NCBI GenBank assembly: GCA_013811855.1
Contig: JACCUL010000103.1
Location: 1-29,835, forward strand
Length of the DNA: 29,835 bases
DNA from: Acidimicrobiia bacterium
GTDB taxonomy: Bacteria; Actinomycetota; Acidimicrobiia; Acidimicrobiales; Ilumatobacteraceae
Direction: 5' to 3'
Under the pieces are notes generated by a model. The model ran no database searches and was not told where the DNA came from. It was given only the letters and a program-made list of their open reading frames with translations. Shown piece after piece: positions 13,054 to 17,562 of the stretch (position 1 is the first letter of the stretch; each line of letters starts with the position of its first letter). The position numbers and the translations under genes are program-made.

Positions 13054-14424
13054 TCAATCGGGCGAGCGGGCGACGGGCAGGGTGATCACCATCCGTGTGC
13101 CGGGCGTGTGATCGGTGTCGACGGCGATCGCGCCGCCGTGACGCTCGACGATCTCCTTGGCGATCGCCAGGCCGAGCCCGGTGCCGCCGGCTGAACGGGC
13201 GTCGTCGACGCGTGCGAAGCGTTCGAAGATCCGTGCTCGGTCGGCGACCGGTATTCCGGCACCGTCATCGGTTACCGCCAACCGCAACATCCCGTCGGTG
13301 GACTCCAGGCTGATCGACACGACATTGCTCGCGTGGCGGACGGCGTTGTCGGCCACGTTGGCGACGGCCCGGGCCAGTTGATCGGCGTGGCCGCGCACCG
13401 GGGTGGCCTCGATGGTCGCCACCTCGACCCGGACGTCGGGGCGCACCCTGGCGGTGCGTACGGCGCGGGCGACAACGCCGTCCAGGTCGACGATGTCAGC
13501 GAGCTCGTCAATCGGGGCGACGTTGCGCTGATCGTCGGCCGATGCCAGTACCAGGAGGTCGTCGACGAGGTGCTGCAGGCCGACCACCTCGTCGAGGACG
13601 CTGCGCTGGGTGGCGGCCGGATCGGCACCGGCCGGGTGGGCGATGTCGACTTCGAGCTCCGCGCGCATACGGGTGAGCGGACTGCGCAGCTCGTGGGAAG
13701 CATCGGCGACGAAACGACGCTGCCGCGCCGCGGCGTCCTGCATCCTCGCCAGCATCCCGTTCATGGTCGAGGCGAGGCGGGCGATCTCGTCGTCGCCTGC
13801 CGGCACCGGCACCCGGCGGTCGAGCTGATGTCCTCCGATGGAATCCACCTCGGCGCGGATCGCCTCCACTGGCCGCAAGGTGCGCCCGACGAGCCACCAC
13901 ACCAGGGCGGCGAGAAGCGCGACGATCACGGGCACGGCGAGGACCAACGAACGAGTGAGGCTGCGCACGCTCTCGTCGATGTCGTCGCGCGTGCCGGCAA
14001 CGTGCACCACGAACGTCCCGGCGGGTCCCGTCCCCCGAACCGATGCGACGCGAAAGACGGCGGGGTCGTGGGGAAGGCGGTCGACCGTGCGAACGGAGCG
14101 GTCGGCACCCTCCGGCGGCGGATCGGCGATCGGTGGGGCGTCGCGAAGGTTGGCGCTGGCCGCGATCACCGCGCCGTTCTCGTCCACGACCTGGGCCGCG
14201 GCGTCGTCCTCGCCGAGCCCCTCGATCGATGTGGCCCCGCGACCATTGGCCACATCGGCGCCGATCTCGACGGCGTGCTGGACGATCGACTCGTCGAGGT
14301 TCTCCGTCAGGACCCGGCGTTGCACGGCCACGAGCACCAGACCCGTGACGAGCAGGACCACGAGCACGACGCCCGTCGCGATCGCCGTCACCCGGAAGCG
14401 GATCGTTGACGGCACGCCCGTCAC
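13054..14424 (-). CDS. Membrane sensor histidine kinase (HAMP-HisKA-HATPase), 456 aa
   Basis: Two hydrophobic segments, HAMP (DEIARLASTMNGML), H-box ADASHELRSPLT, N-box NVADNAVRH, G-boxes DDGAGIP and GGTGLGLAI; GTGA overlap with the regulator gene. Confidence 0.95.
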   Translation of the reverse strand: MTGVPSTIRFRVTAIATGVVLVVLLVTGLVLVAVQRRVLTENLDESIVQHAVEIGADVANGRGATSIEGLGEDDAAAQVVDENGAVIAASANLRDAPPIADPPPEGADRSVRTVDRLPHDPAVFRVASVRGTGPAGTFVVHVAGTRDDIDESVRSLTRSLVLAVPVIVALLAALVWWLVGRTLRPVEAIRAEVDSIGGHQLDRRVPVPAGDDEIARLASTMNGMLARMQDAAARQRRFVADASHELRSPLTRMRAELEVDIAHPAGADPAATQRSVLDEVVGLQHLVDDLLVLASADDQRNVAPIDELADIVDLDGVVARAVRTARVRPDVRVEVATIEATPVRGHADQLARAVANVADNAVRHASNVVSISLESTDGMLRLAVTDDGAGIPVADRARIFERFARVDDARSAGGTGLGLAIAKEIVERHGGAIAVDTDHTPGTRMVITLPVARSPD

Positions 14425-15095
14425 CGGTTCTCCTCGAGGCGGTACCCGGCCCCGCGCAGCGTGGTGATCGTGTGCGTGGCCGCCGGATGGCCGAGCTTGC
14501 GGCGCAGCCGGCCCACGTAGACCTCGACGATGTTGGGATCCCCCAGGAAGTCGTCCTCCCAGACGCCGGCGAGGATCTCGTCCTTGTTGACGACCTGGCC
14601 GGCCCGGCGCACGAGGAACTCGAGCACGTCGAACTCGCGCGCCGTCAACTCGACCTCGATCCCTGCGCACCAGACTCGTCGGGCCGCCGGCTCGATGCGC
14701 AGGTCGCCGACGTCGACCGGTGTCGGATCGCGACCGGCGGCGCGCCGCAGCAAGGCGCGGATGCGGGCCACGAGCACGGGGAACGAGAACGGCTTGCTGA
14801 GGAAGTCGTCGGCGCCGGTGTCGAGCATCTCCGCCTCGTCGAGATCCCCCGACTTGGCCGTCAGGACGAGGATCGGCGTCCAGTTCTCGGCGGCCCGGAG
14901 GTCGGCGCAGAGGCGGAACCCGTTGCGGCGCGGCAGCATGACGTCGAGCACGATCAGGTCGTAGGTGTTCTCGCTGGCCCGCCACCACCCCTCGTCGCCG
15001 TCGCCGGCGATCTCCACGGTGAAGCCCTCGGCCGTCAAGCCGCGCGCAACGGCGGCGGCGATCTTCACGTCGTCCTCGACCACCAGCAGCTTCAC
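14421..15095 (-). CDS. OmpR/PhoB-family response regulator
   Basis: LLVVEDD, LDVMLP (phospho-Asp), GADDFLSKPF, winged helix NIVEVYVGRLRRKL and TLRGAGY. Confidence 0.96.
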   Translation of the reverse strand: MKLLVVEDDVKIAAAVARGLTAEGFTVEIAGDGDEGWWRASENTYDLIVLDVMLPRRNGFRLCADLRAAENWTPILVLTAKSGDLDEAEMLDTGADDFLSKPFSFPVLVARIRALLRRAAGRDPTPVDVGDLRIEPAARRVWCAGIEVELTAREFDVLEFLVRRAGQVVNKDEILAGVWEDDFLGDPNIVEVYVGRLRRKLGHPAATHTITTLRGAGYRLEENR

Positions 15096-15139
15096 GGCCT
15101 CGTCTCTCGTTCCTCGACGGCGCCAGTGTGCCCCGCCTG

Positions 15140-15178
15140 GCTGAACCGGGCCTGAACATCACTCAGACCCGGTTCAGC
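15140..15178. promoter_or_regulatory. Palindromic pair of TCAG-N7-TCAG direct-repeat boxes (candidate response-regulator site; may also act as terminator of the upstream gene)
   Basis: gCTGA-accgggc-CTGA-acatcac-TCAG-acccggt-TCAGc; the minus-strand box is 10 nt upstream of CACACT (15130-15125). Confidence 0.6.
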
Positions 15179-15188
15179 GGCGGGCAGT

Positions 15189-16409
15189 TCACCGGCAGTC
15201 GTCGTCGTCCAGACGCTCGGCGATGGCGTCGAGGATGACTCGGTCGCTGGCGACGCCGACACCGTCGTGCTCGCTCCGATCGAGGCGCAGTTGGCGAGCC
15301 CATGCCTCGAGTCGACGATGGTCGATCCGCGCCGGCGAGCTGTACTGCAGGCGCAGGTCCAACGCGGCGAGCTCCACGTCGATGGCGGCCTGGCGCACGT
15401 CGCCGCGCTGGCGATCGGCGACCGCTTCCTGCAAGCCGCCGAGGGCGTCGTCCATCTGCTCGGCGAGCAGCGGCGGGACCGGTCGAGCGAAGTCCCCCCA
15501 CGACGACGTCATCCTGCCCACCTTGGCGGCGAGCCGCCGCCAGCTCGCCGAGGGCGCGTCAGCGAACACTCGAGCGGCATCGTGGGAGAGCTGGCGCAGC
15601 CGCGGCGGCGTGGCCCCGCCGATGCTGTCCGTCGGAACGGCGACGGCGACGGTCACCAGTTCGTCCTCGACGGGGACGTGGGCCGAGAACTCGCCGTAGC
15701 CGGGCGCGAACGTCTTGTCCTCGAGCGTGCCGTCGGACAGGCGCTCCTGCACGACGATGGCGCCGTGCACCGGGCCCCGTGGTCCGGCGACGGTCTGGTC
15801 GATCGCTTTGACGGTGACCTCTTCGAAGACCAGGCCGGGGATGTTCTCGGGCCGGTACACGTCGCCGACCTGGGGGTCGGAGGGCATGATCATCCCGGGC
15901 GGCCCGTCGCGGCCGGCCAGCCACGTCCCGTCGTGGTTGTCGAGCACGCCGTCGGCGTAGTTGGCGACGTGCTCGCCGAAGTACCACACCGCGCCGTCGT
16001 CGGCCTGGGCGAAGTAGTCGTAGGCCACCTCGGCGATCTGGCCGTCCGAGTAGGCGACGAACTGCGAGACAACGGTCTCGATGCGCTGCCCCCGCCAGTG
16101 GAACACCTTGATCTCGTCGATCAGCGTGATCTCGTGGCGCAGCGACGCGTCGGCCTCGTGCCCCAATTGGACCGCCTGCGTCACCCGCGTGATCGGGAAC
16201 AGCGGGTTGGTGATCCTGGTGGGGTGCGAGAACACCGGTCGGTCGCGGTCCACGCGGTCCGCCGGAGCGCTGACCCCCTCTGGCACCGGCGCGGCACGCG
16301 CCGATCCGACGGCCAGCGGTGCGGCGAGCAGGGCGGCGATGCCGAGCGGTAGGGCGAACCGCAGGGGCGGTCGACGGCGGTCGTCGCGGGAACGGTGAAG
16401 TACGGGCAT
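15189..16409 (-). CDS. Exported protein of unknown function (beta-rich conserved domain plus helical C-terminal extension), 406 aa
   Basis: Signal peptide (RRRPPLRFALPLGIAALLAAPLAVGSARA); motifs YFAQADDGAVWYFGE, WLAGRDGPPGMIMP and GDVYRPE shared with 16579-17562; GGAG before ATG 16409. Confidence 0.8.
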   Translation of the reverse strand: MPVLHRSRDDRRRPPLRFALPLGIAALLAAPLAVGSARAAPVPEGVSAPADRVDRDRPVFSHPTRITNPLFPITRVTQAVQLGHEADASLRHEITLIDEIKVFHWRGQRIETVVSQFVAYSDGQIAEVAYDYFAQADDGAVWYFGEHVANYADGVLDNHDGTWLAGRDGPPGMIMPSDPQVGDVYRPENIPGLVFEEVTVKAIDQTVAGPRGPVHGAIVVQERLSDGTLEDKTFAPGYGEFSAHVPVEDELVTVAVAVPTDSIGGATPPRLRQLSHDAARVFADAPSASWRRLAAKVGRMTSSWGDFARPVPPLLAEQMDDALGGLQEAVADRQRGDVRQAAIDVELAALDLRLQYSSPARIDHRRLEAWARQLRLDRSEHDGVGVASDRVILDAIAERLDDDDCR

Positions 16410-16485
16410 GATCTGCTCCATCACGTGTGCGCCGGATGCGCCGAGTGCGCAGCCGTGCGGTCGAGGTCCACCATGTCCGGCGCTC

Positions 16486-16534
16486 GCTGACTTCGGCCTG
16501 AACGGGGGGTGGAGCCGTTCAGCCGGCCGTCAGC
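16486..16534. promoter_or_regulatory. Second palindromic pair of TCAG-N7-TCAG boxes in the divergent promoter region
   Basis: gCTGA-cttcggc-CTGA-(17 nt)-TCAG-ccggccg-TCAGc; each box is 11 nt upstream of a CANNNT hexamer (minus CATGGT 16475-16470, plus CACGAT 16545-16550). Confidence 0.6.
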
Positions 16535-16578
16535 GACGGTGGGTCACGATCGAGGAGCGCAATGCACAGGAGGAGCCG

Positions 16579-17562
16579 ATGATGTCGAGAAGCCCACGTA
16601 CCCTCGCCTCCACCGGGAGGATCGCGTCGACGGTCGCGCTCGGCGTCGCCGTGCTCGCCGGCTGTGGCGACGACGCGCCTGACACCGGCGGGCCGAGCAC
16701 GGTGCCCGCGGCGGTGGCCACCACGGTCGACACGCCCACGACGGTCGCCACCCCCGCTGCGCCCGAGGCCAGCACGACGGTCGGAGCCGCCACCACGGTC
16801 GAACCCGCCACCACGGTCGAACCCACCACCACGGCCGCGCCGAGCACGACCGTCGGGCCCGCCACGACGGTCCCCGGTTCGCAGCCGGGTGGTGGCGGGA
16901 TCGAGCCCATCGACCCGGGTGACGGCGGGGTCTATGAGCCAGTGCTCGAACCGGCCGACTTCGTCGACGTGGTCGACCACCCCTACTTCCCTCTGGCGGT
17001 CGGGAGCCGGTGGGTCTACGAGGGCGAGGACGACGGCGAGGTGGAGCGGGTCGAGGTCGTCGTGACCGGCCGGCGCCGAGAGATCCTCGGCATCTCGGCG
17101 ACCGTGGTGCGCGACACCGTGTACGTCGACGGGGAGCTCGCCGAGGACACGTTCGACTGGTTCGCCCAGGATCGCGATGGCAACGTCTGGTACCTCGGGG
17201 AGGACACCCGGGAGTTCGAGAACGGCGTCGCCGTCAGCGCGGCAGGGGCGTGGGAGGCCGGAATCGACGGCGCCAAGCCGGGCATCGTCATGCTCGCCGA
17301 ACCCGCCTCGGGTGACGCGTACCGCCAGGAGCTCTACGAGGGTGAGGCCGAAGACATGGCCCGCGTCGTCGACGTCGCCGCCGAGCGAACGGTCCCCACG
17401 GGGACGTACCAGGACGTCCTCGTGACCGAGGACTGGAACCCCCTCGATCCCGATGTGTTCGAGGAGAAGTGGTACGCCGCGGGCGTCGGGTTGATCGGTG
17501 AGCGCAAGCTCACTGGCGGCAAGGGCCGCGTCGAGCTGATCGAGTTCACGGCGGGCGGGTGA
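16579..17562 (+). CDS. Lipoprotein of unknown function, paralogue of 15189-16409, 327 aa
   Basis: SD AGGAGG, lipobox VLAGC, Thr-rich linker, WFAQDRDGNVWYLGE, WEAGIDGAKPGIVM, GDAYRQE, EEKWYAAGVG. Confidence 0.85.
   Translation: MMSRSPRTLASTGRIASTVALGVAVLAGCGDDAPDTGGPSTVPAAVATTVDTPTTVATPAAPEASTTVGAATTVEPATTVEPTTTAAPSTTVGPATTVPGSQPGGGGIEPIDPGDGGVYEPVLEPADFVDVVDHPYFPLAVGSRWVYEGEDDGEVERVEVVVTGRRREILGISATVVRDTVYVDGELAEDTFDWFAQDRDGNVWYLGEDTREFENGVAVSAAGAWEAGIDGAKPGIVMLAEPASGDAYRQELYEGEAEDMARVVDVAAERTVPTGTYQDVLVTEDWNPLDPDVFEEKWYAAGVGLIGERKLTGGKGRVELIEFTAGG
16771..16878 (+). repeat. In-frame 18-bp tandem repeat, 6 units (STTVGA ATTVEP ATTVEP TTTAAP STTVGP ATTVPG)
   Basis: Units 2 and 3 are identical (GCCACCACGGTCGAACCC); the array encodes the lipoprotein linker. 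Confidence 0.8.

Follow-up and report, generated by a model that had tools for sequence, protein, structure and literature searches.

The regulator-kinase locus and its boxes

The stretch analysed here (the window) comprises 29,835 nucleotides of contig JACCUL010000103.1 from an Acidimicrobiia bacterium (GCA_013811855.1), a metagenome-assembled genome of 3.18 Mb with 71% G+C and 89% completeness, whose nearest relatives are labelled Acidimicrobiia, Ilumatobacteraceae or Microthrixaceae. Acidimicrobiia, a largely uncultured class, live in soil, biocrust and freshwater. An operon coding for a response regulator and a sensor histidine kinase lies there next to the genes of two exported proteins, referred to as EXP1 and EXP2, and tandem boxes of the form TCAG-N7-TCAG are found on both sides of EXP1. 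We argue that these boxes are most probably bound by the local regulator, which would activate three transcription units. The genes are the following.

13054 to 14424 (-): sensor histidine kinase; Pfam domains HAMP, HisKA and HATPase_c
14421 to 15095 (-): response regulator of the OmpR/PhoB family, 224 aa; Pfam domains Response_reg and Trans_reg_C
15189 to 16409 (-): EXP1, exported protein of 406 aa, with a signal peptide, a beta-rich domain and a helical C-terminal extension
16579 to 17562 (+): EXP2, lipoprotein of 327 aa, with the lipobox LAGC, a Thr/Pro-rich linker and an all-beta domain of 217 aa

The initial annotation described four TCAG-N7-TCAG pairs arranged in two palindromic sets, three of them followed by a hexamer resembling a -10 element; the coordinates and the geometry of the boxes prove exact, and the three hexamers are present where it placed them, 10–11 nt past the boxes.

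15141 to 15155 (-): box pair toward the regulator gene, GTTCAGG-N4-GTTCAGC on the minus strand; weight-matrix score 22.0, the highest of the genome
15163 to 15177 (+): orphan box pair toward the 3' end of EXP1; weight-matrix score 16.6
16487 to 16501 (-): box pair toward EXP1, GTTCAGG-N4-AGTCAGC on the minus strand; weight-matrix score 18.5, genome rank 4
16519 to 16533 (+): box pair toward EXP2, GTTCAGC-N4-CGTCAGC; weight-matrix score 19.5, genome rank 2
15130 to 15125 (-): -10-like hexamer CACACT of the regulator-kinase operon, 10 nt past the proximal box; predicted start near 15118
16475 to 16470 (-): -10-like hexamer CATGGT of EXP1, 11 nt past the proximal box; predicted start near 16463
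16545 to 16550 (+): -10-like hexamer CACGAT of EXP2, 11 nt past the proximal box; predicted start near 16557

In the first set, 7 nt separate the two CTGA cores, which start at 15141 and 15152, from the two TCAG cores, which start at 15163 and 15174; in the second, 17 nt lie between the CTGA cores (starts 16487 and 16498) and the TCAG cores (starts 16519 and 16530). The 11-bp period is exact in all four pairs. A repeat search recovers the first set as two 16-nt arms, 15140-15155 and 15163-15178, which are 94% complementary. The orphan pair has no NAnnnT hexamer at 10–12 nt.

The boxes are rare. The window contains four TCAG-N7-TCAG pairs, against a mean of 0.48 in 100 dinucleotide-preserving shuffles, none of which reached four. 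The palindromic four-box pattern occurs at these two places only in the 3.18-Mb assembly, and a reversed control pattern gives no match; a REP-like element repeated throughout the genome was considered and is ruled out, the pattern being unique to this locus. When the whole genome is scanned for the full grammar, TCAG-N7-TCAG-N10-12-NAnnnT, seven matches are obtained, three of which are the promoters of the window and one of which lies upstream of a paralogue of the regulator on contig C485. With the weight matrix, the window sites rank 1, 2 and 4 in the genome. The three units of the window have short leaders with Shine-Dalgarno sequences (AGGAGG lies 5 nt upstream of the ATG of EXP2, at 16579). 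A search of public RNA runs found none that contains the locus. Contigs assembled from four sequencing runs (of DNA or of unknown kind) show only strain variants, none of them within the boxes, which is uninformative at about 0.7% divergence.

Regarding the proteins, the start of the kinase gene and the stop of the regulator gene overlap by 4 nt. The kinase has two membrane spans enclosing an extracytoplasmic loop of about 120 aa, followed by the HAMP, HisKA and HATPase domains. Its top NCBIfam match is a heavy-metal sensor subfamily, below the cut-off (198 versus 292 bits); in the curated-family comparison the heavy-metal subfamily is also the best (199 bits for a cut-off of 279) and no equivalog is reached. 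The idea of a copper or heavy-metal system was not adopted, since the NCBIfam subfamily match is well below its cut-off and no His, Met or Cys is found among the residues that are invariant in the lipoprotein domain. The regulator matches the receiver domain and the winged-helix Trans_reg_C domain of Pfam with E-values of 6.6e-26 and 5.4e-25, its phospho-acceptor should be D51, and it falls below the cut-off of every NCBIfam equivalog. EXP1 and EXP2 are paralogues (35% identity over 133 residues, E = 1e-17) that have the beta-rich domain in common; no Pfam or NCBIfam family matched EXP1.

Conservation of the boxes and reach of the proposed regulon

The initial annotation made its proposal depend on the conservation of the motif in orthologous clusters, and we find that the box and its 11-nt distance to the -10 hexamer are indeed kept across the class. 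The loci that were compared surround homologues of EXP1 and EXP2, from 40 relatives and from a collection of 185,579 species; the box statistics were obtained on 98 related loci (850 kb, mostly Acidimicrobiia).

In nine relatives, the regulator-kinase operon (with a regulator 60–76% identical to that of the window) is divergent from the orthologue of EXP2, and the intergenic spacer carries the pattern CTGA-N7-CTGA...TCAG-N7-TCAG, that is, two tandem pairs facing outward. Box and -10 hexamer are found upstream of the regulator gene here and in all the orthologous loci inspected, where the -10 position is occupied by A.CACT, GATAGT or CACGCT. The box of the EXP2 type is present upstream of orthologous lipoprotein genes in 34 unique cases, and the orthologue of EXP1 in one relative (46% identical) has the same four boxes upstream. 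A third target appears in six relatives directly downstream of EXP2: it codes for an exported PepSY-like protein of about 110–135 aa and has its own box pair and -10 hexamer.

Altogether the 98 loci contain 94 unique TCAG-N7-TCAG pairs, 85 of which lie upstream of a regulator, EXP or PepSY-like gene and are oriented toward it. When the downstream sequence is examined with no prior requirement, NAnnnT is found at offset 11 for 63 of the 94 pairs and at offset 10 for 12 of them, while any other offset accounts for at most 6; the first base of the hexamer is C in 47 of the 63 offset-11 cases. From 77 related sites, the half-sites follow the consensus GTTCAGS-N4-GTTCAGS and the extended consensus reads cGTTCAGc..gcGTTCAGc-N9-gCAnnnT. 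The hexamer is located 6–8 nt upstream of the start codon in many relatives, so that the corresponding mRNAs would be leaderless. The distances between outward-facing pairs cluster at 5–7, 17–18 and 28–29 nt, which means that the whole array stays in one 11-bp register; the spacers of the window, 7 and 17 nt, represent two of these classes.

The regulator need not be close to the boxes. EXP2 is preceded by a box in many loci that have no regulator gene inside 4–6 kb, and in the five such genomes that were checked a regulator 71–75% identical to ours is encoded elsewhere, with its own box (in three of the five, beside a PepSY-like gene). The box would act in trans at such unlinked targets. This is also the arrangement of the PepSY-like gene, which is adjacent and boxed in relatives, but unlinked in this genome: it is found on contig C17 (1539-1960), its product is 65–67% identical to the third regulon member of the relatives, and it is preceded by TCAG-N7-ACAG-N11-CATCAT-N7-ATG. 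The proximal variant GACAG is also seen at the EXP2 promoters of two relatives. The similarity of this protein to Pfam PepSY (E = 7e-4) remains below the cut-off (20.3 versus 24 bits). Further upstream of the C17 gene, a segment bearing more TCAG cores occurs twice, about 89 bp apart, as read by eye; these cores are out of the 11-bp register.

The initial annotation regarded the regulon as self-contained, which is too strong a description given the near-consensus box of the C17 gene, the regular third target of the relatives and the existence of a paralogous system on contig C485. In the latter (C485:538-4030), a regulator paralogue (44% identical), a kinase and an EXP1-like gene lie on one strand. 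An in-frame TGA or a frameshift interrupts the EXP1-like gene, which may be a pseudogene. The sequence upstream of the paralogous regulator is TTTCAGG-N4-TCTCAGC-N10-GATGCT, 6 nt from the ATG.

The candidate binder and its probable mode of action

The mechanism that we consider likely is the following. The kinase would phosphorylate the regulator, two molecules of which would bind head-to-tail to two 7-bp half-sites, GTTCAG(C/G), whose separation by 4 bp would give the 11-bp period. With its end 11 nt ahead of a weak CAnnnT -10 element, the proximal half-site would take the place of the -35 element, and the bound dimer would recruit RNA polymerase, as in class II activation of the PhoB type. 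The three promoters of the window would be those of the regulator-kinase operon, in a positive autoregulation, of EXP1 and of EXP2, the last two being served by one divergent four-box element (16487-16533); the element at 15141-15177 would be a former divergent-promoter element whose outward half has lost its target. The wider regulon would take in the PepSY-like exported protein encoded on the other contig. The exported products probably act on the extracytoplasmic domain of the kinase or on the envelope condition that it would sense, judging by analogous PepSY/two-component modules. Autoregulated activators with tandem 11-bp repeats are a textbook type of circuit.

One indication of which protein reads the boxes comes from the recognition helix of the regulator, N188-I-V-E191-V-Y193-V-G-R196. 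A lineage of regulators that are 43–49% identical (records of the Gaiellales/Thermoleophilia type) has the same targets (regulator, PepSY and EXP2) and the same N11-to-(-10) grammar, while its half-sites are TCTCAT-N5-TCTCAT and its helix is SNVVDVYVRYLREK, versus PNIVEVYVxRLRRK here. The two switched residues align without gap with Glu215 and Tyr220 of Mycobacterium tuberculosis PhoP; in the crystal structure of PhoP bound to DNA, the 3' part of the 7-bp half-site TCACAGC is contacted by Asn212 and Glu215, and its 5' part by Tyr217 and Tyr220 (PMC4832192). The combinations of residues and half-sites are Glu and Tyr with TCACAGC in PhoP, Glu and Arg with GTTCAGC in the lineage studied here, and Asp and Tyr with TCTCATC in the diverged lineage. 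This suggests a code in which CAG would be paired with Glu and CAT with Asp, and a 5' TC with Tyr and a 5' GT with Arg; the C485 paralogue, which has Glu and Tyr and a proximal TCTCAGC, is as this code predicts. That helix and half-site vary together points to the local regulator as the binder. A half-site and a helix that shift in parallel in three lineages, read against the PhoP-DNA structure, make a natural example of specificity divergence in the OmpR family.

The most serious rival of the local regulator is the phosphate-starvation regulator, in which case the boxes would be of the PHO type and the local system would be a member of the Pho regulon. In actinobacteria, PHO boxes are likewise direct repeats with an 11-bp period, built on the core GTTCACC (PMC9019756), and in this genome a pstS-like gene (contig C278:1380-1800) is preceded by the repeat GTTCACC-N4-GTTCATC, one base away from GTTCAGC. 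On the other hand, 85 of 109 sites here keep a G at position 6, where the pstS site has C and T; the half-site shifts with the helix of the local regulator in other lineages; the box is present at the promoter of the local regulator itself in every lineage examined; and with the PhoB equivalog model this regulator obtains 182.7 bits, far below the cut-off of 296.2. We give this reading a very small chance, while cross-talk between the two regulators is conceivable. The one-base difference between the half-sites of pstS and of the window raises the question of how two regulons stay insulated, and the family also offers an example of possible insulation from a PHO box one base away.

Whether the bound regulator would activate or repress has to be considered from the promoters themselves. 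A scan for canonical promoters detected no sigma-70 promoter with a -35 element in the region. Genome-wide, the leaderless signature is TAnnnT, with 67–94 cases per offset at 6–8 nt and 43 at 9 nt upstream of candidate starts, for a background of about 10; CAnnnT is not enriched at the general leaderless promoters of the genome. Promoters with CAnnnT and no -35 fit a dependence on an activator, as far as sequence can tell. The opposite-strand CTGAAC was also read as the -35 element of an ECF sigma factor, which was rejected: the conserved partner is NAnnnT at 11 nt, not a -10 of the CGT type at 16–17 nt.

Alternatively, the regulator could bind at -45 to -24 and prevent the polymerase from using otherwise constitutive promoters until the signal is perceived. 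The site does overlap the footprint of the polymerase, palindromic four-box arrays are common for repressors, and the sign of a regulation is not fixed by sequence alone. However, promoters that have no recognisable -35 and a CAnnnT -10, weaker than the TAnnnT norm of the genome, would be poor ones unaided, and the strict 11-nt spacing and the head-to-tail orientation match the architecture of the PhoB and BqsR activators. Repression therefore appears very unlikely to us.

Several points weigh against activation of the three units by the local regulator. The -10 hexamers are poor, with C and not T at the first position. The related loci are not independent, so that the counts obtained on them overstate the statistical support. 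The sites were found via their TCAG core; an unbiased tally of TCAN-N7-TCAN sites still gives G,G at position 6 in 85 of 109 cases. The half-site is one base (position 6) off the PHO-box-like repeat of the genome's own pstS, which leaves room for binding by, or cross-talk with, the phosphate regulator. The outward pair 15163-15177 has no target, and the excess palindromy of the element to which it belongs hints at a role at the RNA level that an operator does not need.

With these points taken into account, the initial annotation's proposal that the local regulator activates its own operon and co-induces both exported paralogues gains support from the conservation of the boxes, from the unlinked targets and from the co-variation of helix and half-site, and we retain it as the probable reading. 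It provides a testable operator, a promoter grammar and a set of targets for an uncharacterised two-component system that is common in Acidimicrobiia.

The hairpin, known systems and the exported proteins

The element located between EXP1 and the regulator gene may also be used as RNA.

15132 to 15187 (-): RNA hairpin, 10 nt past the stop codon of EXP1, overlapping the operator

Its folding energy is -48.1 kcal/mol (z = -6.55) and none of 200 shuffled sequences is as stable. The spacers inside the boxes are complementary at 6 of 7 positions here, versus 2–4 of 7 in relatives of the same geometry (read by eye), and the stem is lengthened by 6 flanking base pairs. No U tract follows: the terminator scan is empty and the tail is CAGGCGGGG. 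Terminators of high-GC actinobacteria are often devoid of a U tract. A search of RNA families gave only a meaningless match to a miRNA hairpin, at 26 bits for a threshold of 70.

One may ask whether 15140-15178 is nothing but an intrinsic terminator of EXP1 without U tract, whose likeness to the second element would be incidental. The position and the stability of the hairpin agree with that, as does a stem that exceeds the boxes, with its complementary spacers, unlike the relatives. It is contradicted by the recurrence of the four cores, in the same 11-bp register, within a divergent promoter region at a distance of 1.3 kb, in which a terminator is not expected, and by the presence of the cores at orthologous regulator promoters that have no co-directional gene upstream; moreover, box and -10 hexamer keep their grammar on the side of the regulator gene, and no T run is present. 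The terminator-only explanation fails, given that these cores also occur where there is no gene to terminate, and we consider it highly improbable. A dual role of the element is more likely than that of a terminator alone: being an almost perfect palindrome, 15141-15177 would form the terminator hairpin of EXP1, and 15140-15178 probably doubles in this manner as a terminator lacking a U tract. Of the plain terminator that the initial annotation offered as an alternative for this element, the stable hairpin after the stop codon is retained, as a probable additional role, not as an alternative to the operator.

Returning to the element as an operator, in relatives with a 7-nt spacer both halves serve as divergent promoters. 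EXP1 sits here where the relatives have EXP2, so that the outward half (15163-15177) is turned toward the end of the EXP1 gene; this half is probably what remains of one side of an ancestral element with divergent promoters. A plausible history is that an EXP gene and its four-box element were duplicated, and that an inversion then took place between the palindromic copies.

Some known systems resemble this one. In Escherichia coli, the -35 element is replaced by the pho box of PhoB, a tandem 11-bp repeat located about 10 bp ahead of the -10; PhoB is autoregulated. The half-site is different here, and many of the orthologous promoters, unlike those of PhoB, would be leaderless, with a -10 located 6–8 nt from the start codon. 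As to the PHO box of the Streptomyces type (PhoP, GTTCACC), it is likewise an 11-bp direct repeat and has the same core save for position 6, which is G here; the local regulator is no PhoB/PhoP equivalog, and the targets are envelope proteins, not the phosphate-uptake genes of a Pho regulon.

M. tuberculosis PhoP (PDB 5ed4), whose DNA-binding domain ranks second in closeness among proteins of solved structure, also uses 7-bp half-sites with a strict 4-bp spacer; its TCACAGC has the 3' part CAGC in common with GTTCAGC, and its recognition helix aligns without gap, with the Asn, the Glu and Tyr217 kept. It differs by the 5' part of the half-site (TCA versus GTT here), by Tyr220, which is Arg here, and by its gene order, type of kinase and targets; our regulator, which reaches no equivalog model, is not its orthologue.

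The combination of a PepSY protein with a two-component system is met in BqsRS/CarRS of Pseudomonas aeruginosa and DbfQRS of Vibrio cholerae. The first genes of the bqsPQRST operon, bqsP and bqsQ, presumably code for PepSY proteins. Modules of this kind have been reported to be widespread (bioRxiv 10.1101/2025.03.24.645060). BqsR, of the OmpR type too, binds the tandem repeat TTAAG-N6-TTAAG over the -35 region, activates when phosphorylated and autoregulates its own operon (PMC4358008); the corresponding 11-bp-period repeat is TTCAG-N6-TTCAG here. There are differences. The RExxE motif, which is the Fe(II) motif of BqsS, is absent from the extracytoplasmic loop of our kinase, as seen by inspection of the translation; the DNA-binding domain of CarR is only the 26th-best match in the PDB (E = 1.9e-12); the PepSY-like gene is unlinked in this genome, and its product below the Pfam PepSY cut-off; an additional family of beta-barrel lipoproteins is present, which is unreported for either Bqs or Dbf; and the host belongs to the Gram-positive-type Acidimicrobiia. 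In its predicted mechanism the circuit is of the PhoB/BqsR type, and it is not an orthologue of BqsRS. The Corynebacterium MprA motif, TKTTAAGAAM, is unrelated to the boxes of the window (PMC12113857). A literature search on the GTTCAG direct repeat gave nothing relevant, and no paper was found that describes this operator.

The domain of EXP2, which no Pfam model matched, is predicted by AlphaFold to be all-beta (pLDDT 94.3). Its best structural matches are weak (TM 0.44–0.48): the putative lipoprotein 4fvs, DUF1849 and MucB. A protein-atlas search gave only clusters of hypothetical proteins or lipoproteins. The family has at least 592 relatives in other genomes, the best 80 of which are at least 50% identical, and relatives at this level occur in Chloroflexota, Thermoleophilia and archaeal records. 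The beta-domain is seen at 50–57% identity in loci L072, L076, L093 and L116, which bear the labels Methanolobus, Peptoclostridium, Thermoplasmatota and Altiarchaeota. For a family that lacks a Pfam model, this spread is unusually wide and the conservation high; it could come from horizontal transfer or from binning artefacts.

One signalling circuit would tie together this Pfam-less family of all-beta lipoproteins and the PepSY-like protein, which provides a first functional handle on both. It is possible, if rather doubtful, that the sensor loop of the kinase, the PepSY-like protein and the beta-barrel lipoprotein form a three-part extracytoplasmic module, in which both exported proteins would be induced and would feed back on the kinase; the lipoproteins would then be a new class of accessory proteins or co-sensors, and the Glu/Asp and Arg/Tyr switches a specificity code that insulates the clade from the PHO box.

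Last, we mention a few observations in the surroundings of this system. Past EXP2, the window has a convergent gene that codes for an MFS transporter. An intergenic region of another contig of the genome (C218:4095-4175) has three 11-bp-phased boxes in inverse orientation, CTGAAG, CTGAAC and GTGAAC; a TATCGT hexamer lies about 30 nt farther downstream, ahead of a leaderless-looking ATG. Loci L129-L132, from relatives of the same genus, contain a second paralogue of the regulator (52–56% identical), which has CTGAG-N6-CTGAG upstream, in the opposite orientation, and is divergent from a small exported-looking open reading frame; it may belong to another sister circuit.

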